From Bdellovibrionales bacterium (GTDB lineage Bacteria > Bdellovibrionota_C > UBA2361 > SZUA-149 > JAGRAN01), in assembly GCA_020434585.1 (NCBI GenBank), contig JAGRAN010000032.1, forward strand, positions 11,013 through 75,012: 64,000 nt of DNA, given 5' to 3'. Shown here piece by piece: positions 466 through 49,200 of the stretch (its first letter is position 1; every line of letters starts with the position of its first letter). Under the pieces are notes generated by a model. That model was not told the DNA's origin and ran no database searches. It worked only from the letters and a program-made list of their open reading frames with translations. The translations under genes were made by a program, and so were the position numbers.

Positions 466-1257
466 ATGAGGAATCCTGCGCTCTTTAACCCTGACCTGAA
501 CGATTCAGGTCAGACAGCAGAAAGGCTTGCAATGTATCGGATCACGGCAATCTTGGTGCTTCTGGGGGCCATGTTCACCATGGTGCTCAGCGGCTGTGCG
601 TCTCACGAGGTTACGATCGAAGCGGACGGGCCGTTCGGCATCCATCTCCGCTTCACCTTCACCCCGATTCCGACGTGCGGCGAAGGTGCGAGTCCCATCG
701 GCTGGACCAAGCACGAGGGCAAGTGGTACCAGGTGTACGACACCGATGGCGACGGAATCGGCGACTGCGTGGTTGGTCCCGATGGTCAGGCCTACGCGAT
801 CAAGGTGCTCGAGGGGGATCCGGCTTCGCTGCCGATCTACCCGACCAAGCACTACATCAGCGGTCTGATCAACGTCGATACCCGGATGATCGAGCGCGCG
901 CATGAACCCGGCTGGTATGCCGGCCTGATCGCGCAAAACGGCATCGACATCCTCGAGTTCGATCCGTCGAGCACCTTCATCGACATCCAGATCGGTTTCG
1001 CTCCGGGCACGGTTCTGCGCGCGCCGGGCGAGTACGGACTCGATGCCGGCACCGAACTCGTTGCCGTCGGAGGCGACGCTGTTCAGCTCTACCGCTTCCA
1101 GGGTCAGGCCGCTGATGTCTACTGGATGCTGCGTGACAGTCTCGGCTTCGAGGACGTCACGCTCCAGACCGAGCACGGTCCGTTCCACTTCGACGGTGGC
1201 GTGGACGAGGTTGCCTTCTCCTGGCACGAGGCAACCCTCGCCGTGGAACGCCGCTAG
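466..1257 (+). CDS. Hypothetical lipoprotein in a GC-rich island
   Basis: N-terminal signal peptide with a lipobox (LSGC) after a hydrophobic helix. Codon third positions are heavily G/C. No recognisable catalytic motif. Confidence 0.5.
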   Translation: MRNPALFNPDLNDSGQTAERLAMYRITAILVLLGAMFTMVLSGCASHEVTIEADGPFGIHLRFTFTPIPTCGEGASPIGWTKHEGKWYQVYDTDGDGIGDCVVGPDGQAYAIKVLEGDPASLPIYPTKHYISGLINVDTRMIERAHEPGWYAGLIAQNGIDILEFDPSSTFIDIQIGFAPGTVLRAPGEYGLDAGTELVAVGGDAVQLYRFQGQAADVYWMLRDSLGFEDVTLQTEHGPFHFDGGVDEVAFSWHEATLAVERR

Positions 1258-1264
1258 CAGCACC

Positions 1265-2011
1265 ATGCTTCGTCGCATGATGTTGCTGAGCGTGTGGGGG
1301 GTGCTGCTGCTTGCAGCGGCACCCCCCAGCTGTCGCAGCGCTGAGCAACAGGCTCTGCAACAGTTTGATGCAGTCACGTTTGAGCCGCTGTCCGATGAAA
1401 AGTGCCTAGGAATTGAGCGCCTCAAGCGTAGTGTCCTGAGGGTGTGGAAAAGTGACGGCGTATTCAGCGCAGTCTGTCTTGGCGAGTTCGAGCTCCTAGC
1501 CGCAGGCCACTCGCTCCGCGGTTTGGAGGTGCCAACTGAGCTCTACGTTGCACAGGTCATTTCCTATCCCGACGACGTTGCAGCAGGGTCCGTGATGCTT
1601 GACCAGGTGAGAGTTGGTCCCGAGGACGGCGAGCGTTCGTCCGATTGGGGATACGTGCGAACCGCCAAGCCGCTGGACGCACTTCCCGCAAGGATCAACA
1701 CCGAGCTTCATCTTGTTTCAGGTCAAGAAGTGGTGCTAGTAGGCTATCCGATGGCTCACGATGGTCACGCGCTTCACTCTGTGTCTGTTGTTCGGGCGAG
1801 AGTGAGCGATGATCGGGGTTCGGTGCTCACACTAGTCGGCCCCAAAGAGTGGCGGCATCCGTTGTCCGGTTTGTCCGGCGGAGCTGCGGCATTCTGGGAT
1901 GAATCGCTTGGGGATTACGTTGTCTTCGGGGCATTTTCCGCAACCCGCTGCTCAGAAGCACTCGATGACTGCGTGTATCTTGTAGTTCGTCCGCCTGTTC
2001 CGTTTGACTGA
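1265..2011 (+). CDS. Secreted trypsin-like peptidase domain protein (tentative)
   Basis: In-frame ATG at 1265 gives a signal-peptide-like N-terminus (MLRRMMLLSVWGVLLLAAAP). The ORF track's 1043 start overlaps the upstream gene. Motifs AAGHS and GLSGGAA resemble the His and GxSGG blocks of S1 peptidases but are degenerate. GC-rich. Confidence 0.4.
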   Translation: MLRRMMLLSVWGVLLLAAAPPSCRSAEQQALQQFDAVTFEPLSDEKCLGIERLKRSVLRVWKSDGVFSAVCLGEFELLAAGHSLRGLEVPTELYVAQVISYPDDVAAGSVMLDQVRVGPEDGERSSDWGYVRTAKPLDALPARINTELHLVSGQEVVLVGYPMAHDGHALHSVSVVRARVSDDRGSVLTLVGPKEWRHPLSGLSGGAAAFWDESLGDYVVFGAFSATRCSEALDDCVYLVVRPPVPFD

Positions 2012-2063
2012 AGCTGCAGGCACAACTCTCTCCCCTCCGAGTCCTGGAGTAATCCAGGGCGGC

Positions 2064-2103
2064 CCCCTCCTTCCGCAAGGAAGGAGGGGTGCTTATTTTC
2101 TTA
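2064..2103 (+). terminator. Rho-independent terminator after the 1265..2011 CDS
   Basis: Perfect 11-bp stem (CCCCTCCTTCC / GGAAGGAGGGG), loop GCAA, then a T-rich run (TGCTTATTTTCTT). Confidence 0.7.
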
Positions 2104-2205
2104 GCGTTTGTTCTCGTCGTCACGGACTTAATCATCTATGGCCCGTATTTGTTTCCTCGCTGATTCAGATTATAACCTTAGCGACTGAAGAACGGAGATA
2201 CTTAT

Positions 2206-2604: not shown

Positions 2605-2637
2605 GCAGTAAGATAGCACTGGTCGGTCGTCGAAAAG

Positions 2638-4356
2638 CTATGACAACAGACCTCGCAATAAAGCGTTTGCGCCGACTCTAAGGTTCCGGAGTGAGTATCC
2701 GCCTTCCTGCACAATAAGCAGCGGTACGCCAACGGACGAGAACATTTGGCCTATGCTGCGCATTCCGTCACGGCTAATGTCGAAAGTGCCGGTCGGGTCG
2801 CCGCTCATGATGTCGTAGCCGAGCGACAAAACAAAATACTTAGGCTTAAATTTAGCGATGGAACGCAGCGCAGCCTGGAGCGTTTTTAAATAAAGCGCGT
2901 CGTCCACGGGAGGAAACAACGGGTAGTTCCGGTTGTATCCTTGACCTGGGCCTTTTCCAGTTTCGTCCTCAAAGCCGCAAAAATAAGGATAGGCTTGCCT
3001 CGGGTTTCCATGAATCGAAACTACGTAAACATCTTTGCGTTCGTAGAAAATATTTTGAGAGCCGTTGCCGTGATGGTAGTCGATATCAAGCAGTGCAACC
3101 TTGGCGTCCTTAGACAGATACTCTGCAGCTACTGCGGCGTTGTTGAAGTAGCAAAATCCACCAAATGCGCTCTTTTCTGCATGGTGACCTGGTGGTCGGC
3201 ATAATACATAGCAGCGCTGTGAGCCGTTCTTGATTAAGGATGCTCCAGTTAGTGCAGCGTCTACTGCGAGTCGCGCAGCTTTGTAGGCATTTCGAGTTAC
3301 AGGCGTAAAGGTGTCCAGACAGAAATATCCAGCTCGCATTTCCCAAGTGCGCGGAAGCCGGCGCTGCTGACGCAGAGGAAATACATTTGGGTAAACGAGT
3401 CGATCCGGAGAGAGTTCGTCCTGCGCTTCTCGAAGGAAGTGCACCAGCTTTTTATCGTGAATCGCAGTTATGTATTTTTCGCCAAAGTGACGCAGCGGAT
3501 GCTCCTTGTACGAGATATCGTGCAGCCCGCGCAAGATGGCACTAACTCTTGCAGGCCTCTCAACATACCCGCGCTCTTTTAAGTGATGTATCTGATGAGA
3601 ATCACCGGAGCAAACGATGTCAATTGAGAGCCGAGTGGGGGCTTTTGCCTTCCGATTTTTTAACCCGGAATATAGCGGGGGCCGAAGCTGAATAGGGTCG
3701 TCTTTCACAGACTTGACGATCGCTCGAAGTGTTGGGTCGCTGCTGGGCATCTGTGCCTTTGCGCCAAGTATGCAAGAGATCGTCGCCTGCACTTCCGCCC
3801 GAGACGGGTTTTTACCTTGGTCGAGCGAATCGTAAACCAAAAACGTAACGTAGCCTTGGTTTCCCTTATGCGCTTTTTTTTCGTAAGCGGTGTTAACTAT
3901 CGGACGCGCGCCAAAGCGTTCATAAAATTCCAGCCGCCGCTTGTTCATGGCGAGACGCTCGGGTTCTTTTAATAGCTCCGGAGCGTCAGGTGGCACGTCC
4001 ATGAAGATGCCGATACAAGGTTTGCGCCGAAAGTGTTCGCGAGTGGCTTCGTAAACCGCCGCGCCGTAACCCCGCTTCTTCCTAGCAGGGTCAGCAGCAA
4101 GGTAATCGAGGTAGGCGGCTTTGGCCTCCGGAAAGTAAAACGATAGACTGAATCCTAGTATTCGTTCTTTTGGCCCTTCTGCTACGAGCAGTACTGGTTC
4201 GAAGGTCTTAGAGTCCGGTTCTCGAAACAAGTCGGCAATCTTGGCGGCGTACTCGGGATAGTAGGAAAACGCACGACGGTAAATGCGAAGAACCGCTGCG
4301 AACAGCTTTTGTTCTTCGCGACGAATTGGGCTGTAAATTTGGCGAATTCTAAACAT
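2638..4356 (-). CDS. Fusion protein: N-terminal GNAT-like acetyltransferase + C-terminal histone-deacetylase/acetoin-utilization (HDAC/AcuC/AphA) family deacetylase
   Basis: The C-terminal half carries canonical HDAC-family motifs (GFCYFNNAAVAA, DIDYHHGNGSQ, SLGYD). The N-terminal ~170 aa contain a GNAT motif-A-like RGYGAAVY / acetyl-CoA-binding pattern. Confidence 0.7.
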   Translation of the reverse strand: MFRIRQIYSPIRREEQKLFAAVLRIYRRAFSYYPEYAAKIADLFREPDSKTFEPVLLVAEGPKERILGFSLSFYFPEAKAAYLDYLAADPARKKRGYGAAVYEATREHFRRKPCIGIFMDVPPDAPELLKEPERLAMNKRRLEFYERFGARPIVNTAYEKKAHKGNQGYVTFLVYDSLDQGKNPSRAEVQATISCILGAKAQMPSSDPTLRAIVKSVKDDPIQLRPPLYSGLKNRKAKAPTRLSIDIVCSGDSHQIHHLKERGYVERPARVSAILRGLHDISYKEHPLRHFGEKYITAIHDKKLVHFLREAQDELSPDRLVYPNVFPLRQQRRLPRTWEMRAGYFCLDTFTPVTRNAYKAARLAVDAALTGASLIKNGSQRCYVLCRPPGHHAEKSAFGGFCYFNNAAVAAEYLSKDAKVALLDIDYHHGNGSQNIFYERKDVYVVSIHGNPRQAYPYFCGFEDETGKGPGQGYNRNYPLFPPVDDALYLKTLQAALRSIAKFKPKYFVLSLGYDIMSGDPTGTFDISRDGMRSIGQMFSSVGVPLLIVQEGGYSLRNLRVGANALLRGLLS

Positions 4357-4557
4357 GAATGTCAGCCGCGGCTAAACACGGTTTTACGATTACAACAGTT
4401 GTATAAAGTTCCAAGCTTCGGTGCAAGGAGATCGACTGAAAGGAGTCCAAATGGTTGGCGGACCGGGAGAGTGTTTTTGCTAATCTAACCTCACTTGGTT
4501 TGTCCGCCATAAAGCGCTGCAGTCCGGTTTCCCGAACTGCAGCGGCTTCATTCTGAC

Positions 4558-5067
4558 TTACTTATCCGGCTTCTCTCCGACCTCGGGAACTTCGGCGTCG
4601 AAGCGGCTGCGCGCAGCTTCATTCTCGGCCTGGTTCTCGAGCTGCATGCGCCGCGCCTTCTCCTCGAGGGATTCGGTCTCGACGCTGCGATGCTCGATCG
4701 AATCGGCGTTCTCGATCAGACTGCGAAGTCGCTGTTCGCGCTCTTCGACGATCGGGCTCGAGATGTCCGTCTGCCGACGAGTGACGATCTCCCACTGGGT
4801 GAGCATGATGGCGCCCAGCCACAGCAGCAGCATCGCTACGACGCTGACGATCGGGAACCCAGGTACCTTTACCGCCGCTTTCGCGCCGGAGTCGTCATCG
4901 GCCAAGCGCTCCTGGGCACGCAGCGCGTCGTAGCGCCGCTTGAAGTACCCGAAGATGCGTACCTTGACGAAGTACCAAGTGACGATCACCAGGACTGCGA
5001 ACAGTCCGATCTTGATCCAGGAGTAGGTGAGGAACTCCAGGATCGACGAATCGTTCATCATGTTCAT
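4558..5067 (-). CDS. Hypothetical membrane protein (single or double TM, acidic coiled tail), co-oriented downstream of the SPFH gene
   Basis: Two hydrophobic helices (IGLFAVLVIVTWYF; IVSVVAMLLLWLGAIML) followed by a charged Glu/Arg-rich C-terminus. GC-rich island. Confidence 0.4.
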   Translation of the reverse strand: MNMMNDSSILEFLTYSWIKIGLFAVLVIVTWYFVKVRIFGYFKRRYDALRAQERLADDDSGAKAAVKVPGFPIVSVVAMLLLWLGAIMLTQWEIVTRRQTDISSPIVEEREQRLRSLIENADSIEHRSVETESLEEKARRMQLENQAENEAARSRFDAEVPEVGEKPDK

Positions 5068-5103
5068 GATGCTCCCTTCTGATGTTGCGAAGACAGGCGG
5101 GCC

Positions 5104-6063
5104 TTACTTGCCCTCCTGCTGCTGGGTGGCGGCGGGCTCCGGCTGGAACGCGTTGTTCGTGATGCCCATCAGCATCGCCGGGTTCTTAAGCGCTTCGTCG
5201 TCGATGATGAACACCTTGTTCGGCGAGGCCGCGAGGGTCTCCATCACCTTGATCATGCGCTGCGTGACGAACGCGGGAGTGACTCCCTCAGCCAGCTTCT
5301 GGTTGACCAGAACCTGGGTTTCGGCCTCGACGAGGTCGACCTCCTGCTGCTTACGCGCGACCTCTAGGGCGGCGTCGGCCTCCGTCAGCTTCACGAGCTT
5401 GTCGGCCTCGGCTTCCTTGATCTCGATCTCGCGCTTCTTCGCCGCCTCCTGGGCATCGATGATGACCTGGGGCGGGTCGACATTCGCCAGAGCGAGCACG
5501 GTCGCATCGATCGGCGTCTCGGCGAGCTTCGCCTGTACCGCTGCGTGAATCTCTTGCGAGACCGCGTCGAGGTTCGAAAGCACGTGCTCGATCGTGTAGT
5601 GCGTGATCACGTGTCGCGCCGTGGTCCGCACGATCTGCTGGGCGTAGGTCTCGTACACCTTCTCGAACGAGATCTGGTGAATGCGGGCGTCGTTGGTCGA
5701 AGCCGCCTCCAGTCGATCGAAGATGATGTTGACCCGTTCCTCCGCCCCCGAGATGGAGAACGTTCCGCGCACGTCGAAGGCCAGCTTGAGCTGATCCTCC
5801 GGCATGAACACGGTCATCGGCTCTTCCACCATGTTGTCAGACACGGCGGTGAGAACGAGGTGCGCCGGCGCCATCGGGTTGACCGGCAGACGGAAGGTGG
5901 ACGGCTGTTTAAGCTCGTCCTGAAAACCTTGAGAGGTTTTCACCTTGCCGACGTGCGCGGTCGGGACCTCGACCTGCTTGCCGCAGCCGGTCAGGGCGAT
6001 CGCACCTACCAGGGCACACAGGACGGCGCTGCCACGAACGAATGAAGAACGCTTGTTTCGCAT
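5104..6063 (-). CDS. SPFH/band-7 (stomatin/prohibitin/HflK-like) lipoprotein
   Basis: Start refined to the in-frame ATG at 6063 (MRNKRSS..), giving a signal peptide plus lipobox LTGCG. The central SPFH-like region is followed by an Ala/Glu-rich coiled coil (EIEIKEAEADKLVKLTEADAALEVARKQQE). GC-rich. Confidence 0.65.
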   Translation of the reverse strand: MRNKRSSFVRGSAVLCALVGAIALTGCGKQVEVPTAHVGKVKTSQGFQDELKQPSTFRLPVNPMAPAHLVLTAVSDNMVEEPMTVFMPEDQLKLAFDVRGTFSISGAEERVNIIFDRLEAASTNDARIHQISFEKVYETYAQQIVRTTARHVITHYTIEHVLSNLDAVSQEIHAAVQAKLAETPIDATVLALANVDPPQVIIDAQEAAKKREIEIKEAEADKLVKLTEADAALEVARKQQEVDLVEAETQVLVNQKLAEGVTPAFVTQRMIKVMETLAASPNKVFIIDDEALKNPAMLMGITNNAFQPEPAATQQQEGK

Positions 6064-6561
6064 CGATTGCTCCTTGTTTGGACTTGCGAAAAACGAACGC
6101 ACCAAGAGGATACGCACCTCCAGGCACGGGAACCTTCAGGGACTAGAATGTCCACAAGTACACTCTCCCGGTTCCGTAAGTGTGCTTACGCGAACGGGTA
6201 CCGTTTCCCGTTAAGAGAAAGAACAAAATGCAAAATGTGAGTACGCAACGACCGGCAGGTGCGAGCCCGGTGGTTAACAAGCATTCATTTGCCGTTGCTA
6301 GGTGCGTCGGGAGGAACGGCTGACACAGTTGAGCGGAGTTTGTTCGCGCCCAGCTGAAAGGGATGTGTTGAGTTTAAGTATCGGAAATAGGCAATTCTTA
6401 ATCAAGGGGCTTGGTAAAATAATTTTAACAACCAAGCTTTGAAGATAGTGTTCAATAAGATAACGACAAAACTATAGTTTCGTTTGAGTCGTAGACATTG
6501 TATGGGATAGAAGCGACTACATAAGCGTTGCGGCGCAGCATAGCAGCTTAGAGTTAATTTT

Positions 6562-7323
6562 ATGATCAACGGTAAAACCATCGCGGTGGTTCTGCCCGCA
6601 TACAACGCGGAACAGAGCCTAAAACAGACCTTCGATGAGATCCCCAAAGATGTCATTGATATCGTTCTTTTGGTTGACGATTGCAGCAGTGATCAGACTG
6701 TCGAAGTTGCGAAATCCCTTGGAATAGCAACAATTCGTCACGAGCAGAATAAAGGCTACGGTGGTAATCAGAAAACGTGCTATCGAGAAGCAATCCGGCG
6801 TGGAGCCGATATAGTTGTCATGCTTCACCCGGACTACCAGTATTCGCCGAAACTACTAACGCCAATATCCGCTATGCTTGCCTACGGGGAATACGATGTG
6901 GCTCTGGGGTCTCGCATCTTGGCTCAAAGTGCAACGAAGCGAGGCATGCCTTACTACAAATATTTCTCAAATCGTGTGCTTACATTTCTTCAAAACATTG
7001 CGCTTGAAAGCAAACTCTCGGAATTTCATACAGGCTACAGGGCGTTCACCAGGCAAGTTCTTGAAACTCTTCCTCTTGAGGAAAATTCGGACGATTTCGT
7101 TTTCGATAACGAAATGCTGGCGCAAATCATTTGGTTCAATTTTCGGATCGGAGAAGTAAGTTGTCCTACCAGATACGCCGCGGAAAGCTCTTCAATCAGT
7201 TTTAAACGTAGCGTTGTGTACGGACTAGGGGTGCTTCGCGTAAGCGCTAGCTATCTGCTTCAAAAATACTGCTCAATGCAGTTCTCAATCTTTAGTGCGG
7301 AAGGAAAAAAACTCACTAAGTGA
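6562..7323 (+). CDS. Family-2 glycosyltransferase (dolichyl-phosphate sugar synthase-like)
   Basis: N-terminal GT-A signature (IAVVLPAYNAEQSL ... VDDCSSDQT ... NKGYGGN ... HPDYQY). 253 aa. Confidence 0.8.
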   Translation: MINGKTIAVVLPAYNAEQSLKQTFDEIPKDVIDIVLLVDDCSSDQTVEVAKSLGIATIRHEQNKGYGGNQKTCYREAIRRGADIVVMLHPDYQYSPKLLTPISAMLAYGEYDVALGSRILAQSATKRGMPYYKYFSNRVLTFLQNIALESKLSEFHTGYRAFTRQVLETLPLEENSDDFVFDNEMLAQIIWFNFRIGEVSCPTRYAAESSSISFKRSVVYGLGVLRVSASYLLQKYCSMQFSIFSAEGKKLTK

Positions 7324-7331
7324 TCTGGCTG

Positions 7332-8621: not shown

Positions 8622-9692
8622 ATGATCTGGAACTGGCTCGAATTTGGCTGTGTATGGATCGCTTGGTTCGGGCTTACCGGCTTTTGCGTGATTGCCGGCC
8701 GGAGCGATCTTATCTATTCAAGGCGCGTTCGCGAGTCAGTCGGCAACCTACTTTTGGTCATTTTCTCGTTTACGTTCGTGCTGTTCGCTGTGGAGAGCTG
8801 GTTTTTTATTTATCCGATTGCGGATGCCAGGATTTATAGCAAGACCGCCAGCAGATGGGGATATAAGTACTGGGGCGAGAAGAATTCGTTTGGATATAGG
8901 GACAGAGAATACACTAGAGATCGTTGTGGATCTGTTCCTTTACTCGCAGTAATCGGAGATTCGTTTGCAGCCGGATGGGGAGTCAAGGATCGCCGTGAAC
9001 GATTTGTGAATCTGATCAGAGACGCTCTTGAGCCGCAGATGGAGACGGTGCTGATCGGGGACTTAGCATGGGATTCTAAGAAAGAACTGGACGGGCTCAA
9101 GGCGTATCCGTGCAAGCCTGACGTAGTGATTCTCAGTTACTATTTTAACGATATTTTCAATGAGGCAGTGAGCCAAGGTGTGGTTGCAGCTCCTCAGCCG
9201 ACCCCGGCCCCAAAACTGCTTCGGCCCTTAGTCGATCATTTTTACCTATTTGATTTCGCGTGGACCATCTACGATCGCCGATTCGGAGGTCATAGCGGCG
9301 TAGTTGAGCTAATTGAAGCAGCGTTTAATTCGAAGGAAGTGTGGGCTGCTCACAAGCAACAACTGAAAGATATTGTGAAGTATACAAGAGACAACGAAAT
9401 AAAATTGATTACAGTAATATTTCCTGTGCTATCTGCGGTCGATGTGACAAGAAAGTTTGCGCATCAGGTAGCAGAAGTATTTGTGGAAGAGGGCATAAAG
9501 ACAATCGACTTGTCGTCTGAGCTATCGATGTATTCCCCTCGCCAGTTAGTTGTCAACGCGTTTGATAGTCATCCAAATGAATTTACCAATCGCTTAGTCT
9601 TTGAAAGCTTGAGTGAAGAACTTTTAAAATTAAAAGAAGAGAGCGCTTCTCGAGCTAGCGAGCCTCCCGCGCGATTTGTCGGTGAAATGTAG
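8622..9692 (+). CDS. Membrane-anchored SGNH/GDSL hydrolase family protein (paralog 2 of 4)
   Basis: Two N-terminal TM helices. Block I is LLAVIGDSFAAGWGV. The DxxH block is FDSHPNEFTN. Divergent from paralog 1. Confidence 0.7.
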   Translation: MIWNWLEFGCVWIAWFGLTGFCVIAGRSDLIYSRRVRESVGNLLLVIFSFTFVLFAVESWFFIYPIADARIYSKTASRWGYKYWGEKNSFGYRDREYTRDRCGSVPLLAVIGDSFAAGWGVKDRRERFVNLIRDALEPQMETVLIGDLAWDSKKELDGLKAYPCKPDVVILSYYFNDIFNEAVSQGVVAAPQPTPAPKLLRPLVDHFYLFDFAWTIYDRRFGGHSGVVELIEAAFNSKEVWAAHKQQLKDIVKYTRDNEIKLITVIFPVLSAVDVTRKFAHQVAEVFVEEGIKTIDLSSELSMYSPRQLVVNAFDSHPNEFTNRLVFESLSEELLKLKEESASRASEPPARFVGEM

Positions 9693-9700
9693 TCTTTGGT

Positions 9701-21259: not shown

Positions 21260-22965
21260 TAAACCTGTTCGAAACTATTTAGTACCTGAAGGCCGAGTTC
21301 TCTGTTGTCTAAAGTATTGCTGTGAAGGCTGGGTTTCCAACTCCTCGAAGTTTCAATCCAGTAGCGTACTTTTGGAGCAGAGCCGCAGGTAAGAACGACT
21401 TTGTTAATCTCAGGGCTCGTAAGTTTCAGCTCAACTCCTTGGGACGGGCCGTGAATAGTGACCCTGAGGGGTCTCCTGGATAAATCTGGATTTGCTGCTC
21501 GCAGCAGTAGCTCTGCGTGATGGGTCTCTGGGCTGCAGTCGAGTGAGCCCGTTGACTGCTGCGTGCTCCAGCGAAAGAATTCACCATTGCTGCTTTTCTC
21601 CCAAGTGTAAAAGCCATACTCACCCGATGAGGCTTGCCATGCCGCACCGGCAGCTGCTGCAATCGAGAGAATGATTGTAGAGCTAAGTCGAATGCGGCTG
21701 TGTTCAACATTTAAGCAAGCAGCCATGACAATTGCAGTTAGAATGCTAACTTCATCAAATACCAAATGGGGACCGAAAAAAAGTAATATGACTAAACAGC
21801 TTAACGAGAAAATCGCTGGACTGAGGTAGTTTTGTTCATGGTCTTCGGGGCTGCTAGGACGGACATGGAGTGCAGCCAGCGCGAGAAGAAACAAACCAAG
21901 TCCGATAATTCCTGTTTCGGCCAGCAGGCCAATGTAAAAATTATTCGAATTGTCCGTCCAGGCACCAAGGTTATGGTTTAACTGTAAGCTGTAGAAGGGA
22001 GCCCACTCTGCGAAACGGTCGAAGCCAACACCAAAAAGAGGATTATCCTGCCAAATTTCAATACCGATTTTCCAGAAAACCAATCGAGTGTGGAATGTTT
22101 GTGCAATATTTAGAAAGCTAATCGCGTCCAGACCACGTCGGGCGGCTTCAGGCAGCATTAGAAGGGTGCTTTGATATGAATCGATTTGATACATACGAAG
22201 GTAATCGAGCAGCCCAACGGAACAGAAACCTATTAAAGTTAGCAGCAGCGTTGCTTTGCGCGAATGCGAATAGCAAAACAAGAATAAATAGAGTGCTGCG
22301 CCAAGGATGAAGCTGCGGGAGCCGGTAAGTGAAGCCGAATAGAGCAGGCAGCAGAGCGCAAGCAAGTACAGAATAGTTCCAAACCGATTCTGGGATGTAA
22401 AACCGTTCACGATGAACGGGAGCAGGAGTATCAAGAATATTCCTGCCGCATTCGGATCACTGAAAGTGCTTGTGTAACGTCCGAGTGAGTCCCAGTAGTA
22501 AGTTTGATTTGGAAGCATCAAACTGGTCAGGGTTCCGTTCTTCTGCAGATATCCGACCAATGCTGCGACGGGCAAAGCAGCAGCCATACCTTTCAGCGCA
22601 GACTCTCTGGCAGAAGCACTGTCAGAAAAGATTTTGAACAATATCGGGACAAGGGCGAAGCGAAGCAGATTCTCAAGACCTACCCAGTCGAACGTGCCGA
22701 AGTTTGGCAAAAATGCCAATTTCTCAAAAAAAACTTCGGCGCAGTAGGAAGCAGCGAGAAGGCTAAGCAGCGGTGCCGCCCATATGAGGTCTCCAAGTGT
22801 CCATCGCCGCTTTTCGGACAGCGCGAACACAATCGCAAGGATCAGCGCGGTTCCCGGGCCGAAAATCGTGAGCAGGGGGACTAGAAACCCGAAGAGTAGC
22901 GCTTTTAAGCTGCCAGCTCCTGAATCACCACCGTCTTCTGTCATTCCCAGGCTGTCCTCCCGCAT
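21256..22965 (-). CDS. Wzy_C-domain membrane protein (O-antigen ligase / PglL-type O-oligosaccharyltransferase family)
   Basis: About 12 TM helices. A characteristic Wzy_C block (YSASLTGSRSFILGAALYLFLF) is followed by a large periplasmic loop, then a C-terminal soluble domain. Its stop overlaps the convergent fatty-acid hydroxylase stop. Confidence 0.7.
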   Translation of the reverse strand: MREDSLGMTEDGGDSGAGSLKALLFGFLVPLLTIFGPGTALILAIVFALSEKRRWTLGDLIWAAPLLSLLAASYCAEVFFEKLAFLPNFGTFDWVGLENLLRFALVPILFKIFSDSASARESALKGMAAALPVAALVGYLQKNGTLTSLMLPNQTYYWDSLGRYTSTFSDPNAAGIFLILLLPFIVNGFTSQNRFGTILYLLALCCLLYSASLTGSRSFILGAALYLFLFCYSHSRKATLLLTLIGFCSVGLLDYLRMYQIDSYQSTLLMLPEAARRGLDAISFLNIAQTFHTRLVFWKIGIEIWQDNPLFGVGFDRFAEWAPFYSLQLNHNLGAWTDNSNNFYIGLLAETGIIGLGLFLLALAALHVRPSSPEDHEQNYLSPAIFSLSCLVILLFFGPHLVFDEVSILTAIVMAACLNVEHSRIRLSSTIILSIAAAAGAAWQASSGEYGFYTWEKSSNGEFFRWSTQQSTGSLDCSPETHHAELLLRAANPDLSRRPLRVTIHGPSQGVELKLTSPEINKVVLTCGSAPKVRYWIETSRSWKPSLHSNTLDNRELGLQVLNSFEQVY

Positions 22966-23142
22966 ACAAAGATATACACGAGCGTCGGTAAGCTCGTCTC
23001 CAATTCTTTCCGTGAACTTGGCTTAAGAAAATCTCAATTGTCTCGGCAAATTTGTCAGGTTTGCTTACTATAGCTTGATTTTTCCGGACAGTCGGTATTG
23101 CATAGGTCGGTCTGAGGTGCGCGGCTTAATTGGAGATTTCAA

Positions 23143-23949
23143 ATGCGACAGCTAGTCATCGGCATTTTGTCTATTTGTTTTGGGGTAGTCTTATTCGGAG
23201 CGAGCAGTGCTCAAGCTCAACAGAGTGTTGTTGAAGCGCGGCGCGGATCGTCTGCCGCAGTTGGGGAGGAGGAAGAGGACAGCAGGCCTTGGGGATTTCA
23301 GGTTAGCGCCGGCGTTTACTCAGACTACATGTTTCGCGGAAAAACCGTTTATCCGGGAACTTCAATCCAGCCTTCCGTAACTGGCTGGTATGATTTCGGG
23401 TCAATCGGTTCGTTGAGCTTTAACGTTTGGTCGCACCTGTCCGGGGAGACAGTCGAGCCACCCGAGAAATTTACCGAACTAGACACGACCTTTTCTTATG
23501 ATGTGACCGTTCTCGATTACGTTAACTTCGCAGCGGGATTCATCATGTATCGTTTTCCAGGTAAGTCGGGCAGGATTGCCGATACCAACGAATACTACCT
23601 TGGCCTCGGTGCTAATATTTGGGGTAATCCTACTGTCACTTTTTACAACGACTTCGATATCGGTCGATACCAGTATGCGACTCTCAGCTTCAAACAGCCG
23701 TTTGAGATTGAAGAGGTTGCTCCGGGTTTCGCGCTGATTCCTTACACAGCGTTTGGTTTCGCGTTTAACGCAAACGACGGACCAGTATTTTACGTTGATA
23801 ACGGCTTGGTTACCGTTGACGTCGGTCTGTTGGCTGATATTCCAGTTTGGGAGTTTACGTTGACTCCGAGCATCAACTACACGTTTGAAGCTGACGAAGC
23901 CAATAACAACGAATTCTGGTTCGGATTAGAGTTGAGCTACGCGATTTAG
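23143..23949 (+). CDS. Secreted protein, possibly an outer-membrane beta-barrel
   Basis: Signal peptide (ILSICFGVVLFGASSAQAQQS). Alternating hydrophobic/aromatic beta-strand-like pattern. Ends ELSYAI. Confidence 0.4.
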   Translation: MRQLVIGILSICFGVVLFGASSAQAQQSVVEARRGSSAAVGEEEEDSRPWGFQVSAGVYSDYMFRGKTVYPGTSIQPSVTGWYDFGSIGSLSFNVWSHLSGETVEPPEKFTELDTTFSYDVTVLDYVNFAAGFIMYRFPGKSGRIADTNEYYLGLGANIWGNPTVTFYNDFDIGRYQYATLSFKQPFEIEEVAPGFALIPYTAFGFAFNANDGPVFYVDNGLVTVDVGLLADIPVWEFTLTPSINYTFEADEANNNEFWFGLELSYAI

Positions 23950-26074: not shown

Positions 26075-26656
26075 ATGCTGAGGACACGTTCTAGTAAGTT
26101 TGCCGCACTTATTCTTGGTCTTATTGCAATCGCAGCGTGTATCGGCTGTCAGAGCGACAAGCTGACGACGATAGTTTTGTCGGGCAGGGCACTTTTCCCG
26201 CCGGAGTTTACCGGCTTGGGTGAGCAGGTTCCCGTAGCCAATACCGACTTTGCGGTGCTCGATCTAAGTCTCCCCGGTGACTCAAACGTGGTTGCGGTTG
26301 GCGTGACAGACATCGCCGGAAATTACTTCACACGAATCAACGCTACTCCATCAGTCGCGGTGGTTGTCCTGGGCGCCGTCCGGGTCTCTGGATTAATTGA
26401 TACTACCAGTTCATTTGTCGAGAAGGCCTTTGACGGGATCACTGACGTTGCTTGTGAGGCTGGAGTGACGGCGATAGGTGAGGGCAAAATCTTTCCATTC
26501 GAAATGGATGCCGAGCGAATTTCCAACCTTGAAGCTGGTGCCTTTATGGCTGTTCAGCAGATCGCAGTAGATTATACTGACAGTGATGGTTCGCGAACTG
26601 CCGCTGTTAACCTAACTAGGCAGCTGACCGATGACGGCGCTCATCCGCCGCTATAA
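26075..26656 (+). CDS. Hypothetical lipoprotein
   Basis: Signal peptide plus lipobox (IAIAACIGCQSD). 193 aa, no known motif. Confidence 0.4.
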   Translation: MLRTRSSKFAALILGLIAIAACIGCQSDKLTTIVLSGRALFPPEFTGLGEQVPVANTDFAVLDLSLPGDSNVVAVGVTDIAGNYFTRINATPSVAVVVLGAVRVSGLIDTTSSFVEKAFDGITDVACEAGVTAIGEGKIFPFEMDAERISNLEAGAFMAVQQIAVDYTDSDGSRTAAVNLTRQLTDDGAHPPL

Positions 26657-37556: not shown

Positions 37557-38421
37557 GGCCTAGTACCTTCGCTTTGATCGAGGAGAAAACTTTAATTGTT
37601 TCAGCGACTCGCGGCCCAGGAAAGGACGAGAGATCTCTGCGCAGCAAATAGACGTGATTATTGCGTACTGCCTTTAAAAAAGACAATTTGCTCCAGGCGG
37701 ATGCTAACTGTTCGCGATGACCCGTATCGGCTGATAGAGAGATGTCAATGATAACGTCCGGATTTAAAGCTGCAAGACCCTCAGCTGATAGGGAACTGTA
37801 GCCTCTTACCGCGGCTGCGGCGTTGCTTAGCCGAAGCTTGTGCAGCACATCGTCGTAGAAAGTTTCTGTTCCGGCCGCATATGCAGACGAAACAGCCGGA
37901 CCCGCATTTGAGTCTACTACGACCAGAGCTTTGTAGTCTTCTGCATTCAGTTGATTTTGCAGTAAGTCAGAAATCTCAGATTCAATTCTTTGAACGAGTA
38001 ATCTCGCTCGGTCTGAGCGGTCTATGCTTTTGCCGATAGCGGCAATAGAGTGAAAAATCTCGTCGATCGACTCGTTAGCGACGGAGAGAGTTCGGATATT
38101 CAGAGCGTCGAGTTTGCTTTTTAACCCCGCGTGACTATCAAGCATGATTACCAAATCTGGTTTGAGCGATAGTAGCTTTTCAAGGCTCGTATCAAATAGG
38201 CCGCCTAGGTGAGGCAGCTTGGACGCCTCGGGCGGATATTTGCAGTAGGTAGTTACGGCGATCAGTTTAGATTCTGCGCCAAGAGCGAACACCGTTTCAG
38301 TTATGGTTGGCGCGAGGGAAATAATTCGTTGCGGCACCGTGTCCGCTGGGAGGGCCTCGGCGCTGCCCCATGAGCTTAGGGTCAGCACCGCGGCGGTAAC
38401 TAACTTTAAGAGCATTCTCAA
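37540..38421 (-). CDS. btuF: Periplasmic cobalamin/siderophore-binding protein (BtuF-like)
   Basis: Signal peptide, then RIISLAPTITETVFALGAESKLIAVTTYCKYP, typical of BtuF / class III substrate-binding proteins. Confidence 0.75.
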   Translation of the reverse strand: MRMLLKLVTAAVLTLSSWGSAEALPADTVPQRIISLAPTITETVFALGAESKLIAVTTYCKYPPEASKLPHLGGLFDTSLEKLLSLKPDLVIMLDSHAGLKSKLDALNIRTLSVANESIDEIFHSIAAIGKSIDRSDRARLLVQRIESEISDLLQNQLNAEDYKALVVVDSNAGPAVSSAYAAGTETFYDDVLHKLRLSNAAAAVRGYSSLSAEGLAALNPDVIIDISLSADTGHREQLASAWSKLSFLKAVRNNHVYLLRRDLSSFPGPRVAETIKVFSSIKAKVLGHAVNN

Positions 38422-40253
38422 AGCGCAACCTCTACGCCTCCAAATATTTCAAATCCCGGCGTGCTGTAGCCGTTAATCTCCTCGTAATCTTCGTCGAACA
38501 AATTCTCGACCCTAAGAAACGGGGTGACCTTCTCAAGCAGCGTGTACTGAAGAGACGCGTCGACACGCGTATAGTCATCCATATCAGAACCGTCAGAGTC
38601 GATGCGATCCCTAACGACAAGCAAGGTTATGGAGCCGGTTAGGTTCTCGACAGGCTCGAAAAACAAGTCGAGCGACCCTCTGTGTTTTGGTCTCCTGGCT
38701 AGCTGGGTTCCGGTTTCATCATTTTCAGCATCCGTATACGTGTATTGGGCCGAACCGCTGAGTTGTTCGCAAAGCTTTGCATTCAGCGTAAATTCCACTC
38801 CATGTATGCTCGCGCTGTCGATGTTTTCAGCCAAAAAGGTTATAGAATCAAAGGTGATTAAATCGTCAATCTCACTGCGGAAGTAAGTCACATCCGCCGT
38901 AATATCCTCAAACAAAGTAACGCCTAAGCCAACATCCCAGCCGAGACTGGTTTCCGGATCAAGATCCGGATTGCCAAAATTTGGAAAATACAATTCGTTA
39001 AACGACGGCGCCTTAAAACCACTGCCAACGCTGCCGTGCATCCTCATTCCCGTGTCTGGCGGGCGAACTGACATTGTCGCGCGGTAGGTTGTCTCGCTGC
39101 CGAAATCGGAATCATCGTCGTAGCGTACGCCCCCGGTAAAGGTTGCCCATGGTGTCCAGCGCAATTGGTCTTCAAGGAAAAACGAATTCACTTGCCGTGA
39201 TTTGTTGAAGTTGCCGATATTTTCTCCCTTACGGTGTTCGTTGGTGTAGCCGAGAGTAATCGTATTCTCTTCTATCGGTTCTATATCAACGGCCGCCGTA
39301 GCACTGGTTGTTGTCTGTTTGATGTCGAAATTGTTGAATTCGGAGTCGGGGTCTCGGCCTTCAAGGTCCTCGTCGTAAATACCGAGTTCGACTCGAGGTA
39401 CGATATACTCTCCTAAAGACTTCGATGCAGTAAGTGAGCCGGTAAGCACTTCGCGTTTTTGGGTGTAGTTAAGTGCATCTACAGGGCCTACGCCGAATTC
39501 GAAATCATCGAGTTCAGTATCGCCTTTAATAAATCGAAAAGTTGCATCGGCGCGACCGTCTCCTAAAAAGTTTAAGCCGGTTCTAGTCGAGGCGGTAATG
39601 TTCTCATACTCGTCTCGTTCAGTATTGCCGTTTCTTTCGCTTGCTGCGGAAACGCCGTCTGTGTCGAAGTAGGTTATGCTATTGGCAGTATCAAAAAGCT
39701 CGTTGCCGTATCCAGCGTGCGCCCGATATTCATAGGTGGAGTGATTACCTGCTCCGGCTGATACAGCGGCGCTGGGTCCCTCGGCTGCCTTTCGAGTGAT
39801 TATGTTGATCACTCCGCCAATCGCATCGGAGCCATAAAGTACGCTTTGCGGACCACGTACAACTTCGATACGTTCAATGTTCGCGGTGTTAAGGTCAGCA
39901 AAATCGTAGCCGCCAACGTTCGCGTCGTTAGCTTTGACCCCGTCAATTAATACCAACGTCTGGTCGGTGTCAGCTCCGCGAATATAAACTCCGCTGACTC
40001 TACCTCTGCCACCGGACTGCGTAACGTCGACTCCGGGGAGCGAACGCAGCATTTCTATTACGCTGGTGCGGCGTGTAGCTTCAATTTGTTCGCGCGTAAT
40101 TAAACTTACACTGCTGCCGGTTTCTTCCAGTGTGCTGGGTGTAAGGTTCGCCGAAACTACAATCTCAGGTGTTTCTTCAGCAGCTGCACAAGTTGGCAGA
40201 GCGATTGCAATGCAGCAAGCAGCTGCACAAAAAGTATTTTTATATTGTTTCAT
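38418..40253 (-). CDS. btuB: TonB-dependent outer-membrane receptor (BtuB-like)
   Basis: Signal peptide, TonB box (ETPEIVVSAN) and plug domain (RSLPGVDVTQSGGRGRVSGVYIRGADTDQTLVLIDGV...IERIEVVRGPQSVLYGSDAIGGVINIIT). It sits directly downstream of a cobalamin riboswitch. Confidence 0.85.
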   Translation of the reverse strand: MKQYKNTFCAAACCIAIALPTCAAAEETPEIVVSANLTPSTLEETGSSVSLITREQIEATRRTSVIEMLRSLPGVDVTQSGGRGRVSGVYIRGADTDQTLVLIDGVKANDANVGGYDFADLNTANIERIEVVRGPQSVLYGSDAIGGVINIITRKAAEGPSAAVSAGAGNHSTYEYRAHAGYGNELFDTANSITYFDTDGVSAASERNGNTERDEYENITASTRTGLNFLGDGRADATFRFIKGDTELDDFEFGVGPVDALNYTQKREVLTGSLTASKSLGEYIVPRVELGIYDEDLEGRDPDSEFNNFDIKQTTTSATAAVDIEPIEENTITLGYTNEHRKGENIGNFNKSRQVNSFFLEDQLRWTPWATFTGGVRYDDDSDFGSETTYRATMSVRPPDTGMRMHGSVGSGFKAPSFNELYFPNFGNPDLDPETSLGWDVGLGVTLFEDITADVTYFRSEIDDLITFDSITFLAENIDSASIHGVEFTLNAKLCEQLSGSAQYTYTDAENDETGTQLARRPKHRGSLDLFFEPVENLTGSITLLVVRDRIDSDGSDMDDYTRVDASLQYTLLEKVTPFLRVENLFDEDYEEINGYSTPGFEIFGGVEVAL

Positions 40254-40264: not shown

Positions 40265-40450
40265 TCCCTTCCCGCGAAGAGAGTTAGCGTTCGGTGCTGA
40301 TTGGCTCAGGTCTCCTGGCTTCTCGTCATCCTCGCACCCGCCTTCCCGAGCAGAAGCTCAGTGGCATGATTAGGCGCTCGTCAGAGTTACAGTTGCGCGG
40401 CAGCGTGGGATTTGCACCCAACTTCCCTTGTTCCAACGCAGTTCTCGCCG
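40265..40450 (-). ncRNA. Cobalamin (B12) riboswitch in the btuB 5' leader
   Basis: The reverse complement reads ...AAGGGAAGUUGGGUGCAAAUCCCACGCUGCCGCGCAACUGUAA...AUGCCACUGAGCUUCUGCUCGGGAAGGCGGGUG...AAGCCAGGAGACCUGAGCC, ending at the btuB AUG. It contains the conserved GGGAA-GGUG-AAUCC-CCGC-ACUGU core, GCCACUG...GGGAAGGC and the B12 box. Confidence 0.8.
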
Positions 40451-42132: not shown

Positions 42133-42179
42133 AAAAGCTAATTCGCAAGAGCTTAAGCGGTTTTCGAATAAACCTGAAG

Positions 42180-45205: not shown

Positions 45206-46018
45206 TTACTGATCGGAATCAGTCTCGGGCTCGTCTATCCAGCTAAATGCTGTGAGAACAACTCTAGTGCCTGCAGCCTTTCCGGGGACCTCGTGAACGT
45301 CCTTATCGAATTTTGAGATAAAGTCACGCGCCTCCCGGTGCAGCTTTTTCCCTCGCTCCAGAAGCCATTTGCGGATCTTCGGCACGTCTTCCTTGAAAAC
45401 ATTGTCGTATTCAGTTCGAATGTGCAGATTGACAGCCTCACCGGGAGATTCGATATTCTCCTGAGAGCAAGTTGCCAAAGTTTCGATGTTGCGCGCCAGC
45501 AAATCGTGGGCTCTAGAGGAGTCTTTGCTATAAGACTGATAGTCGCTTACCAACCGAACTCCGCGCGGTGTGCGCTCCACAGCTCCTAATCTTTCAAGTT
45601 CAAATAATATAGTACCGGGCTTAAGCGTAGAATTCACCGTGGAAACTAGCTTTGCAAACTCGTTGTTCTCTTTCGAAATTGAGAGGACTCTCGGTTTGCC
45701 GTCTTGAGTAGTAAACTGCTCCGACTGCTCCCACTGTCCCATCACTTGCATGGATACGTTCGAAGTGGGGCGTTCTTCAGTTCTTTCCGGGTCGAGCAAT
45801 CGCGCGACATCCTTTCTATGAACGCCAGTCATCACGTTAATGCGCGCGATGGTTGCACGTTTGCCTGCTTTGGCAATTTCGGTTTGAGCTTCTTCTACAA
45901 GCAGCTGTTTCAAGACTTCCACCATTGATTTAAGTGTGACTCCTCGTCGCAGCCAATAGCGAGCGATCGGGCGCAGCACCTTACTTAAGTTATGGATGGA
46001 TTTCTCGTCAGCTTGCAT
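45206..46018 (-). CDS. Hypothetical HTH-like protein, paralog A of a 270-aa family
   Basis: Clear paralog of 51731..52546: ARYWLRRGV/ARFCLRHGI, IARINVMTGVHRKDVARLL/VSRISIMTGIHRKEVRSLM, ELERLGAVERTP/ELERAGIVEREN, LHIRTEYDNVFKEDVPKIRKWLLERG/LHLRTEYDNIAVERIPEIKTWLLREG. The MTG[VI]HRK segment looks like a helix-turn-helix. Confidence 0.5.
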   Translation of the reverse strand: MQADEKSIHNLSKVLRPIARYWLRRGVTLKSMVEVLKQLLVEEAQTEIAKAGKRATIARINVMTGVHRKDVARLLDPERTEERPTSNVSMQVMGQWEQSEQFTTQDGKPRVLSISKENNEFAKLVSTVNSTLKPGTILFELERLGAVERTPRGVRLVSDYQSYSKDSSRAHDLLARNIETLATCSQENIESPGEAVNLHIRTEYDNVFKEDVPKIRKWLLERGKKLHREARDFISKFDKDVHEVPGKAAGTRVVLTAFSWIDEPETDSDQ

Positions 46019-47113: not shown

Positions 47114-47343
47114 ATCCTCAGAAGCTTATCATGGGCTTCGCAGCTAATCGAGTTTGCAGGCTAAAGATAAAATTAGCTGCCGGATTAACAAGGTTTATTA
47201 AGATATCACTGCGATGCATAATTGCTGGGTGCAGAAGTCGAGAACCTTGAATGGTTCTAACCTACAGCCCCCAGTAAACGCGGCGATGCGCGCAGACAAT
47301 CGGGCGAGTGGAAAGCACGGAGAAACGCGTCCAGAGCGTCGCG

Positions 47344-48627
47344 TTAGCTGATCTGCTCGATGAGGACCATCGTCAGTAGCACCAGGCTCACGGCAGCCGC
47401 GATCCAGTCGGCGGCGCGAGGACGTTCTTCGCCTCCTTTCCTCCAGAGAAACAGCGGATACGCGGCGATGCACCCGAAGAGCGCAACGGCGATGCTCGAG
47501 CAGAGGATGCCAGCCAGGGCAACGAGCTCGAGGTACCGCGTGATGCGGTCGCGTTCCAGATCGCAGTACGGGTACTTGGCGATGTTGTATCCGACGAACG
47601 CCAATGCAACCGCGGAGGCGAACGCTGGGACTGCTGAAGTCACGGGGGCAGTGAACACCATGATGACGAACAGCAACCCCGTGACGAGCGTGCAAACCCG
47701 AGTGCGTCCACCCGCCAGGATGCCGGTGATGCCCTCGAAAGCGACGATGATGGTTCCAGTGCCGAAGACGGGACCGATAGCACCAATCGCGCCGCTGGCC
47801 GTGAGGCCGCGAGTGAGATGCACCGGAGAGCCGTCGGCTTCCTGCAGATCGGGCGCAGGCGAGACTTTCGCCTCGAAGGTCGAAACGACGTCTGCGATCA
47901 AGACCGCCAACAGGGTCAACATCTCGTCGAGGTACTCGAACCGGAGTGCTGATGAAATGTCGGGCGAGATCCAGCGCAGCTCTGGCGCGGCGAAGATCTT
48001 GTCCGGCAGCTCGGCGTCGCCAAGCAGCAGTCCACCGACCATCGCGACGCTGATGCCGATCAGAATGGCGATTGGCCGACTGCGCTTGAACTCCCAGACC
48101 GCGAACAGCACAGCGGTTCCGAGGAGGAACAGAGCGCTTTGCGAGGTCAGCTTGAGGCCGAGCAGCACCGACCCTCCGCCGAGTAGACCGGCGGTGCGCG
48201 CTGCAGCCGCTATCAGGTAGTACCCAATCGCGAGCTTCACGACGCACTTCAGTCGAAACGGGGTGGCGGCAGCAGCGCGCGTGACCAGTCCGGAGACTGA
48301 CATCAGGGCGAACACTGCAGACGAGCAGACCGCGATTCCGAGGATGTGAGTCCACGGGATGTGGTTCGCAGCAAAGGCTCCGAAGAGCGAGAGCGGAACG
48401 ATTCCGGGAATCATCACTCCGGGCGGCTTCGGGACGAGCAGCGCGTAGAGCAGCGTGCTCACAGCGCAGAGCAGCGCGGCGAGCGTACTCGACTCCTGAG
48501 CGGTAAACCCGGAGCCCTGCATGAATGCAGGAGTAAGCGGAACGATGTACATGACCGAAACCGCGGTAACGGTGCCGGCGATGACCTGCGAGAGCAGGCT
48601 GCGATGAACGTGTGTCTCGAACTGCAA
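47344..48627 (-). CDS. Nucleobase (xanthine/uracil/adenine-guanine) permease, NCS2/AzgA family
   Basis: 12-14 TM helices with AzgA-like blocks (AFMQGSGFTA..., VFGTGTIIVAFEGITG). Very GC-rich island. The overlapping 531-aa ORF at 47198..48793 and the + strand ORFs are artifacts. Confidence 0.75.
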   Translation of the reverse strand: MQFETHVHRSLLSQVIAGTVTAVSVMYIVPLTPAFMQGSGFTAQESSTLAALLCAVSTLLYALLVPKPPGVMIPGIVPLSLFGAFAANHIPWTHILGIAVCSSAVFALMSVSGLVTRAAAATPFRLKCVVKLAIGYYLIAAAARTAGLLGGGSVLLGLKLTSQSALFLLGTAVLFAVWEFKRSRPIAILIGISVAMVGGLLLGDAELPDKIFAAPELRWISPDISSALRFEYLDEMLTLLAVLIADVVSTFEAKVSPAPDLQEADGSPVHLTRGLTASGAIGAIGPVFGTGTIIVAFEGITGILAGGRTRVCTLVTGLLFVIMVFTAPVTSAVPAFASAVALAFVGYNIAKYPYCDLERDRITRYLELVALAGILCSSIAVALFGCIAAYPLFLWRKGGEERPRAADWIAAAVSLVLLTMVLIEQIS

Positions 48628-49200
48628 CTGAATACTCCGTGACGGTTTGGGGTGGAATAGTGAAGAGGTGTTGTTCGATCACTCGCCAACGAACGACACC
48701 AGACCCGGATGCAGCACAAGGTGCAGATTCCGGGTCCAGTGCCGATCGATTTGTTCCAATCACGGAGAAAAGAACCACAATGACTTCATACACACCGCCT
48801 GAGGTTCACGCTCAGCAGGTGTGTTGAACTAATGCTTCTACTCACGACCAAATTTGCGATTCAGCAGCGTATGGTAGTGCATCAATTACGTCAAGAATCT
48901 GGGCGGCTTAGATTGTTTGTTTCTTGTTAATAATGCGTTGCAGCTGCGCAAGGGACACGCAGGCAAGAATTTAAGCAGACAAATCGAGCCGCGACTGGAT
49001 AAAAATATACATTGTTACAAATTATCATAATGAGCGATTAACCACTTTAGTGCGTAAAAAAAGAGGTTCAGCTAGAAACTACGAATTCAACGTTACAATG
49101 TTACGATACTTTGCTTAGAGAAGTTGCTTGCCCGGAGTATGCTGGACCTATAACCCATTCGAGTATTTCCTGTGTTTGTATATAGTTAAGGAGCTTTACG

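Follow-up and report, generated by a model that had tools for sequence, protein, structure and literature searches.

GC-rich gene islands in a 51% GC Bdellovibrionales chromosome: an apparently long-maintained pepA-like gene and a cassette probably exchanged between species

Genes of atypical GC content are routinely read as recent transfers, and their drift toward host composition (amelioration) is used as a clock. Here, we describe a gene that contradicts this practice, in a 64,000-nucleotide stretch of a Bdellovibrionales bacterium (GenBank assembly GCA_020434585.1, contig JAGRAN010000032.1, positions 11,013 to 75,012 of the forward strand; hereafter the window). Four gene-sized islands in this window contain five coding sequences (CDSs) that are unusually rich in G or C at third codon positions (GC3), and one of them, a pepA-like gene, has a GC3 of about 0.85 amid genes of about 0.5–0.65. 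What makes this element unusual is its long-term resistance to amelioration, through a bias toward G/C-ending codons that is limited to the CDS and specific to codon boxes. At slightly better than even confidence, we favour the reading that the five GC3-rich genes are foreign-type cassettes that differ in age and whose G/C-ending codons are held by such a CDS-limited fixation bias. The islands would then be genuine single transcription units of different ages, carrying a 'high-GC' codon set within a chromosome of about 51% GC.

The backbone of the window is that of a 51% GC metagenome-assembled genome (MAG); the whole window has a GC content of 0.512 and its pooled intergenic DNA one of 0.48. 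A preliminary description of this DNA had singled out four GC-rich places with sharp borders, and quantitative analysis bears this out. GC in sliding 1-kb windows reaches 0.61–0.66 at each of the four and stays near 0.50 in the rest of the sequence, and GC3 per gene, far from being uniform, is bimodal, with five CDSs at 0.78–0.85 and about 50 other open reading frames (ORFs) at 0.46–0.65, the interval of 0.65–0.77 being empty of window genes and no gradient being visible. The elevation runs along the entire island CDSs and ends at their borders, the flanks being back at 0.40–0.60 within 50–100 nt, and every island starts and ends in intergenic DNA between two intact neighbouring genes. The observation is real, if slightly overstated: third positions that had been called almost all G/C are a property of the five CDSs (Table 1), and gene 1b of island 1 lies outside this class, its GC of 0.60 stemming from codon positions 1 and 2. 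Two spans also had to be redrawn, as the end of pepA placed at 32162 belongs to an antisense ORF, and the span assigned to the permease of island 4 corresponds to an ORF (47198–48793) that reads the same strand in another frame and has a GC3 of 0.48. Amino-acid composition (GARP vs FYMINK) was tried as a marker and discarded as uninformative, since island shifts lie within about 1 SD of the backbone and the pepA product is mid-range for the M17 family. In the literature on Bdellovibrio-like organisms, we found no description of conserved GC3-rich gene classes.

Table 1. Features of the four islands, in window coordinates
Feature	Coordinates	Strand	Properties
Island 1 inverted repeat, left arm	351–367		TAAG-CCGTGACGACGAG
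Island 1, gene 1a	466–1257	+	Orphan protein, lipoprotein-type signal (LSGC); GC 0.62, GC3 0.78
Island 1, gene 1b	1268–2011	+	Orphan, N-terminal signal-like segment; GC 0.60, GC3 0.59
Terminator-like hairpin past gene 1b	2064–2103	+	CCCCTCCTTCC gcaa GGAAGGAGGGG, then a T-rich run; read from the sequence
Island 1 inverted repeat, right arm	2113–2130		CTCGTCGTCACGGACTTA; 13 nt exact, 1-nt bulge, 4 nt
Island 2 cassette	4456–6425	-	Leader, SPFH lipoprotein, membrane partner, hairpin; equals the homology block with the sister species
Island 2 inverted repeat, left arm	4459–4474		CGGA-CCGGGAGAGTGT; at the downstream end of cassette homology
Island 2, gene 2a	4558–5067	-	169-aa membrane partner; GC3 0.82–0.83
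Island 2, gene 2b	5104–6063	-	SPFH/Band_7 lipoprotein, 319 aa from ATG at 6063; GC3 0.84
Gene 2b, long ORF	5104–6117	-	GC3 0.84
Island 2 inverted repeat, right arm	6160–6176		ACACTCTCCCGGTTCCG; in the conserved leader; the upstream end of the cassette is about 250 nt further out
Island 3, pepA-like M17 leucyl-aminopeptidase-family gene	30558–32072	-	GC 0.655, GC3 0.85; AAGGAGG ribosome-binding site
Antisense ORF	30663–32162	+	499 codons, in-register reverse-complement frame of pepA
Island 4, membrane protein (permease)	47344–48627	-	427 aa, TTG start; GC 0.63, GC3 0.77–0.78

The evidence for long persistence comes from pepA. Its predicted product matches the M17 catalytic domain (PF00883, E 1.8e-96), with an N-terminal domain at 20.9 bits against a cut-off of 23.4 and a best NCBIfam equivalog at 384.6, under the cut-off of 432, so that the original label holds at the level of the family and falls short of the equivalog; the gene appears to be a pepA-like member of the M17 family. 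Its position in the Dus-pepA pair is shared by four other contigs, representing three further lineages (L001, from NCBI MAG Co_bin.267, together with L028, from Logan; L029, also from Logan; and L030, from ENA), and the gene order around Dus-pepA is kept in these relatives over about 20 kb. Identity to the orthologues is 81%, 66% and 67–74%, that of the neighbouring genes being 45–87%, and the amino-acid distances of pepA order the three genome pairs among the window, L028 and L029 as the backbone does. In every lineage, the GC3 of pepA is 0.85–0.88, with backbones at 0.47–0.57 (L028 and L030) and 0.60–0.73 (L029). A comparison with 5.8 billion proteins yielded nothing from outside the clade that exceeds about 50% identity, and GC3 is ordinary in the outgroup pepA genes of an Oligoflexia MAG (36% identity) and of another contig (40%). 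Together, these comparisons suggest that the common ancestor of the clade carried a GC3-rich pepA at the locus where it stands today.

We then measured how far synonymous sites have turned over since, as the four-fold-site identity in excess of that expected from base composition among the window, L028 and L029. In nine neighbouring genes, this excess is about 0–0.2, mostly below 0.1 (about 0–0.15 at the codon level), and their synonymous sites are saturated. The corresponding values for pepA are 0.43 (window-L028), 0.26 (window-L029) and 0.29 (L028-L029), or 0.43, 0.21 and 0.22 at the codon level, and the excess persists when the expectation is calculated codon family by codon family. C<->G swaps account for 41/89, 52/94 and 56/95 of the four-fold differences in the three pairs. 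Because third positions turn over mostly as such swaps, the high GC3 of pepA would be a maintained equilibrium. By our calculation, had GC3 decayed neutrally toward 0.5 as fast as the backbone, the ancestral value would have to exceed 1, and for the comparisons with L029 this is also true at the apparent rate of pepA itself.

The non-coding flanks of pepA are conserved among the same three genomes over about 110 nt on the upstream side and 75 nt on the downstream side (32073–32185 and 30486–30557, both on the minus strand), and no Rfam family reached its gathering score there in a scan of the whole window. Within the downstream terminator stem, one compensatory pair change was seen (GCTCGG/CCGAGC to GCCCGG/CCGGGC). 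Conservation of non-coding flanks was considered as a neutral clock and rejected, because backbone intergenic regions are conserved as well: regions 25904–26084 and 22956–23152 are 62–85% identical to their L028 and L029 counterparts despite saturated synonymous sites, and one conserved backbone intergenic region holds a TTGAAA-17-TATAAT promoter, conserved without a single change, together with a TTGATCCTTGATCAA palindrome. In L030, whose contig is labelled as having 2x coverage, pepA (9760–11270) is split across three frames, probably through sequencing error rather than because it is a pseudogene. An inverted repeat around the Dus-pepA unit (30081–30101 / 33378–33398) is not conserved in relatives and was taken as chance.

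The long antisense ORFs of the islands had been called spurious, and we reach the same view, as they are by-products of island codon usage: pepA contains no TTA, CTA or TCA codons, which is why its antisense ORF is open, and A-ending codons are missing from most of its boxes. Were these ORFs translated as functional overlapping genes, they could constrain the third positions of the sense strand, and the in-register frame of pepA is open for 501–505 codons in three lineages while its synonymous sites are slower than those of its neighbours. However, the Pro, Thr, Arg, Ile, Lys and Gln boxes lack A-ending codons just as much, 36–46% of the four-fold sites differ between orthologues, mostly by C<->G exchanges that are radical first-position changes on the antisense strand, and the other islands carry 1–6 stops in that frame. 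Given codon absence beyond TTA/CTA/TCA and the C<->G turnover between orthologues, we rejected the antisense ORFs as genes, and antisense constraint is a highly improbable cause of the bias.

A single box-specific pattern is common to the five island genes and the pepA orthologues. The share of G/C-ending codons is 0.87–1.0 in the TTY, ATH, AAY and AAR boxes and 0.54–0.69, about the backbone level, in that of glycine (GGN); CGT and GGT show no depletion, and the cysteine box is hardly shifted. In nine native high-GC loci, the glycine box stands at 0.73–0.84 and weak boxes are often lower than in the islands. Depletion of A/T runs and of TA, which is real when compared with synonymous shuffles, was rejected as a discriminator, being shared by the native high-GC loci L007 and L008. 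We propose that a fixation bias toward G/C-ending codons, confined to the CDS and varying in strength by codon box, would hold the GC3 of pepA at about 0.85. Mutation input would be AT-ward, because young variants of the island 2 cassette, taken as third-position differences between the near-identical strains L036 and L041 and polarised by the window copy, comprise 10 changes from G/C to A/T (S>W) against 2 in the opposite direction (W>S); a stable GC3 would thus need preferential loss of S>W changes, for which the likeliest cause would be purifying selection on the coding sequence or the mRNA.

A fixation bias of this kind could also arise without selection through GC-biased gene conversion, if exchange at recombination hot spots drives W>S fixation. 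The islands resemble bacterial gene conversion in requiring a bias toward G/C at synonymous sites against AT-biased mutation, and exchange between species is demonstrable for island 2; moreover, Lassalle and colleagues are said to have found in 2015 that recombining bacterial genes tend to higher GC3. The island effect nevertheless stops at start and stop codons, flanks and leaders having a GC of 0.45–0.61, and a blind W>S bias should not spare GGN, cysteine, CGT and GGT. In addition, it is much larger: to our knowledge, the effects reported for gene conversion in bacteria fall far short of a shift from 0.5 to 0.85. Because the effect is both box-specific and CDS-limited, blind gene conversion or a local mutation bias is disfavoured, and we consider gene conversion unlikely.

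A further possibility is that the island genes are highly expressed and for that reason keep codons that are translationally optimal in the lineage or date from a GC-rich ancestor. The islands prefer C-ending NNY codons and retain CGT and GGT, preferences that resemble optimal-codon sets; the ribosome-binding site of pepA is strong, and backbone GC varies in the clade, with a GC3 of about 0.65 in L029. Yet rpsI (0.49) and rplM (0.58) of the sister species (L036) and the flagellin of the window (0.53) have ordinary GC3, the bimodal distribution shows no gradient, the island proteins are of accessory or orphan types, and other loci from Bdellovibrionota and Oligoflexia are 37–54% GC and carry no islands. 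We regard this explanation as very unlikely.

The CDS-limited bias is seen again in island 2, which would be a self-contained 2-kb cassette running from leader to hairpin. It is 89% identical over 1866–1870 nt, plus 97 nt at 76%, to copies in L036, L038 and L041 from the sister species (that of Co_bin.267), and the similarity stops abruptly on both sides: the sister-species cassette is flanked by genes for an M3 peptidase and a TrpR-family protein, that of the window by genes for a deacetylase and a glycosyltransferase. Gene 2b, whose earlier SPFH assignment is supported by a Band_7 match (Pfam, E 3e-12) and which is recorded at NCBI in its 319-aa form although a longer ORF is available, shares 96% of its amino acids with the sister copy; end-to-end alignments of backbone genes give 53–82%. 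At four-fold sites, the two copies of gene 2b have an identity of 0.80, half of the differences being transitions, while backbone synonymous sites of the same genome pair are saturated; this spectrum looks like the signature of a split younger than that of pepA. Because an 89% identical block lies at a different locus, with a protein far more similar than the backbone and unsaturated four-fold sites, the cassette appears to have moved between, or into, species of the clade after their divergence. It contains no recognisable mobility gene, and its non-coding parts are about 50% GC. A metagenome scan with the SPFH protein gave one homologue, the best from outside the clade, at 51% identity; it lies in a 50% GC contig (L035) as part of a distant SPFH and partner module (51% and 29% identity) of normal GC3. 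The leader was tried as a known or structured RNA and dismissed, having no Rfam match at E<=1 and a fold z-score of -0.97.

Near the cassette copy in L036 lie genes for an acetyltransferase (6614–7153, GC3 0.77) and a CBS-domain protein (8850–9734, GC3 0.70), and variable regions may be where GC-rich genes cluster. Islands 1 and 2 of the window are separated by a GNAT-deacetylase fusion gene (2638–4356, minus strand) of host-like GC3 (0.53), whose closest relatives, apart from one contig at 85%, are gammaproteobacterial (Halioglobus and others, 58–59%); this gene may be an older, ameliorated transfer. As an anchor for both islands, it has one close relative, the 3.2-kb contig L031 (85%), in which synteny breaks right at the deacetylase gene.

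The preliminary description had read the islands as recent horizontal acquisitions, each a fresh import from a high-GC donor, too young to have drifted to host composition. Their dinucleotide signature is foreign, the pooled islands lying at a distance of 177 from the backbone (equally large backbone samples: 35 +/- 12) and closest to high-GC loci of Planctomycetota and Acidobacteria (78–88 to those of Planctomycetota and Solibacteraceae). The island proteins are orphan or divergent, island 2 sits at different loci in two species and is missing beside the deacetylase gene of L031, and inverted repeats flank islands 1 and 2. For pepA, however, the gene is present in relatives (L001/L028, L029 and L030), syntenic, co-diverged and equally GC3-rich in three lineages with saturated synonymous sites, and 'recent' does not hold. 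No close homologue was found in a plausible donor lineage for pepA (about 50%), the permease (at most 65%) or the SPFH protein (51%); the non-coding parts of the cassette are unlike the intergenic DNA of a 65% GC donor, and the known partner of island 2 is a sister species rather than such a donor. The window has no tRNA gene, the window proteins scanned contain no integrase, recombinase or transposase domain, and no flanking direct repeats of at least 11 nt were found at the islands. Thus, foreign-type composition and the movement of island 2 uphold horizontal acquisition, and its recency is lost for pepA. As an explanation of the islands in general, recent import seems to us rather improbable; it may hold for islands 1 and 4, and for island 2 its place would be taken by exchange of the cassette within the clade. 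The compositional signature fits an old import from high-GC donors, which would probably be the ultimate source of the codon set.

That the islands were joined into the contig from reads of a high-GC organism had been raised as well, and sharp compositional borders in a MAG invite this suspicion. The pepA junctions, however, recur in four independent assemblies (one from NCBI, two from Logan and one from ENA), both permease junctions recur in the Logan contig L040, and the island 2 block, with its internal structure, is present in five assemblies; moreover, the islands begin and end in intergenic DNA between intact genes. The re-observed junctions are those of pepA and the permease, as distinct from those of island 1 and the flank junctions of island 2 in the window. 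A chimera is thus excluded at the re-observed junctions, and for the islands as a whole it is almost certainly not the explanation.

Around each of islands 1 and 2 lies a private 17-nt imperfect inverted repeat, which may mark the ends of cassettes. Both pairs consist of 13 exact nucleotides, a one-base bulge in the right arm and 4 more nucleotides, and each sequence is paired only once in the window. Among 162 units of one to three genes, island 1 ranks first and island 2 joint second in flanking-repeat score, and their scores were matched in 0/300 shuffles. At island 1, the terminator-like hairpin lies on the inner side of the right arm.

Islands 1 and 4 have shallower records. Neither gene 1a nor gene 1b encodes a protein with a Pfam or NCBIfam family, and the 'trypsin-like' label given to gene 1b finds no support in these databases; the exact protein of gene 1a is also recorded from ENA contigs. 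The island 4 protein is distantly similar to AzgA/AZG-type nucleobase permeases, its earlier designation being backed by a weak AZG1 match only (E 2e-8). The permease and both of its neighbours recur in L040, which comes from another sample, at 99.3% identity over 3.9 kb. The family is rare, with 7 cluster representatives below E 1e-30, and a metagenome scan with the permease gave no relative. Its best homologue (about 64–65%; L042) adjoins a SurE gene in a contig of about 58% GC and has a GC3 of 0.76 against 0.62 for its neighbour, which is compatible with maintained GC3, as weaker evidence than that from pepA.

Several points weigh against the view that old foreign-type cassettes are held GC3-rich by a CDS-limited bias. 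Only pepA has orthologues deep enough to speak to long-term maintenance; the permease has one 64% homologue, in a different context and with a smaller contrast, and the proteins of island 1 have no relatives beyond near-identical copies. The polarised count of 10:2 is small (binomial p ~0.04), and its skew could represent ongoing decay. The composition of the islands, including the depletion of A/T runs, resembles that of native Planctomycetota and Acidobacteria loci, so that a simple donor signature accounts for the pattern, if not for its having lasted. As for the cassette ends, no target-site duplication is visible at islands 1 or 2, no flanking inverted repeats were found at pepA or the permease, the repeats of the two islands differ in sequence, having only a CCGnGA core in common, and one island 2 arm lies 250 nt inside the homology block, so that the repeats are at most candidate cassette ends.

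The islands share features with several known systems. They resemble genomic islets of atypical composition in being gene-sized blocks with foreign GC3, codon usage and dinucleotides, sharp intergenic borders and accessory or orphan content, at least one of which stands at different loci in relatives; unlike such islets, they lack a tRNA gene, an integrase and direct repeats, and their non-coding parts have host-like GC. The amelioration model for horizontally acquired genes is said to go back to Lawrence and Ochman in 1997, and pepA departs from it in being unameliorated while the synonymous sites of its neighbours have been randomised. Mobile insertion cassettes are non-autonomous passenger genes bounded by inverted repeats and without a transposase. 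Islands 1 and 2, bracketed by short inverted repeats, and island 2, found at another locus elsewhere, recall them; in contrast to such cassettes, the repeats are private to each island, a target-site duplication is absent, each occurs in a single copy per window, no cognate transposase was seen, and one island 2 arm lies within the moved block. Codon-biased translational regulons comprise transcripts tunable by tRNA modification, as in hypoxic mycobacteria; the islands may be likened to them as a discrete gene class with its own codon usage kept by selection, but by analogy only: nothing seen here points to co-regulation, to a tRNA or modification switch that would match, or to a promoter motif in common. 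In Bdellovibrio, ancient transfers have been described as ameliorated and recent ones as AT-rich (PMC3539863), a pattern to which the GC-rich islands are the opposite.

If pepA represents a general phenomenon, the dating and detection of transfers by composition could be badly wrong for some genes, and a gene-specific, coding-limited force on synonymous sites would be at work that is neither expression-linked bias nor simple mutation pressure. A 2-kb cassette found in two species and carrying no mobility gene points, in addition, to a route of exchange that element-based annotation would miss. We speculate, giving the idea only a small chance of being right, that the clade may keep a second, selectively enforced codon set for accessory units (an aminopeptidase, an SPFH module, a permease and a lipoprotein), some of them mobile as promoter-to-terminator cassettes and possibly co-regulated. 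Such a set would explain why island genes never ameliorate, and co-regulation could work through the tRNA pool, tRNA modification or mRNA stability, for example, as a switch within a predatory life cycle of two phases.

Other features of the window deserve mention. A cobalamin riboswitch (40308–40428, minus strand; Rfam RF00174, 84 bits) lies upstream of genes for a TonB-dependent receptor (38418–40253) and then periplasmic-binding, ABC and FecCD transporter proteins, together an ordinary B12 uptake operon. The three B12-transport genes are bracketed by an exact 17-nt inverted repeat, TAAGCTCATGGGGCAGC (35595–35611 / 38362–38378), one arm of which falls within the binding-protein gene, at its 5' end; the chance expectation for repeats of this length is about 0.02 per window. 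Of two flagellin genes, the one at 13729–15666 (plus strand) has FG-GAP repeats in its central variable region (seven stretches, Pfam), and for the one at 33424–34881 (minus strand) only a faint FG-GAP_3 match was recorded, in the L030 orthologue. Two paralogous DUF6502 genes stand about 6 kb apart (45206–46018 and 51731–52546, both on the minus strand), and in L028 and L030 a DUF6502 gene lies near Dus, where the window has a flagellin gene.

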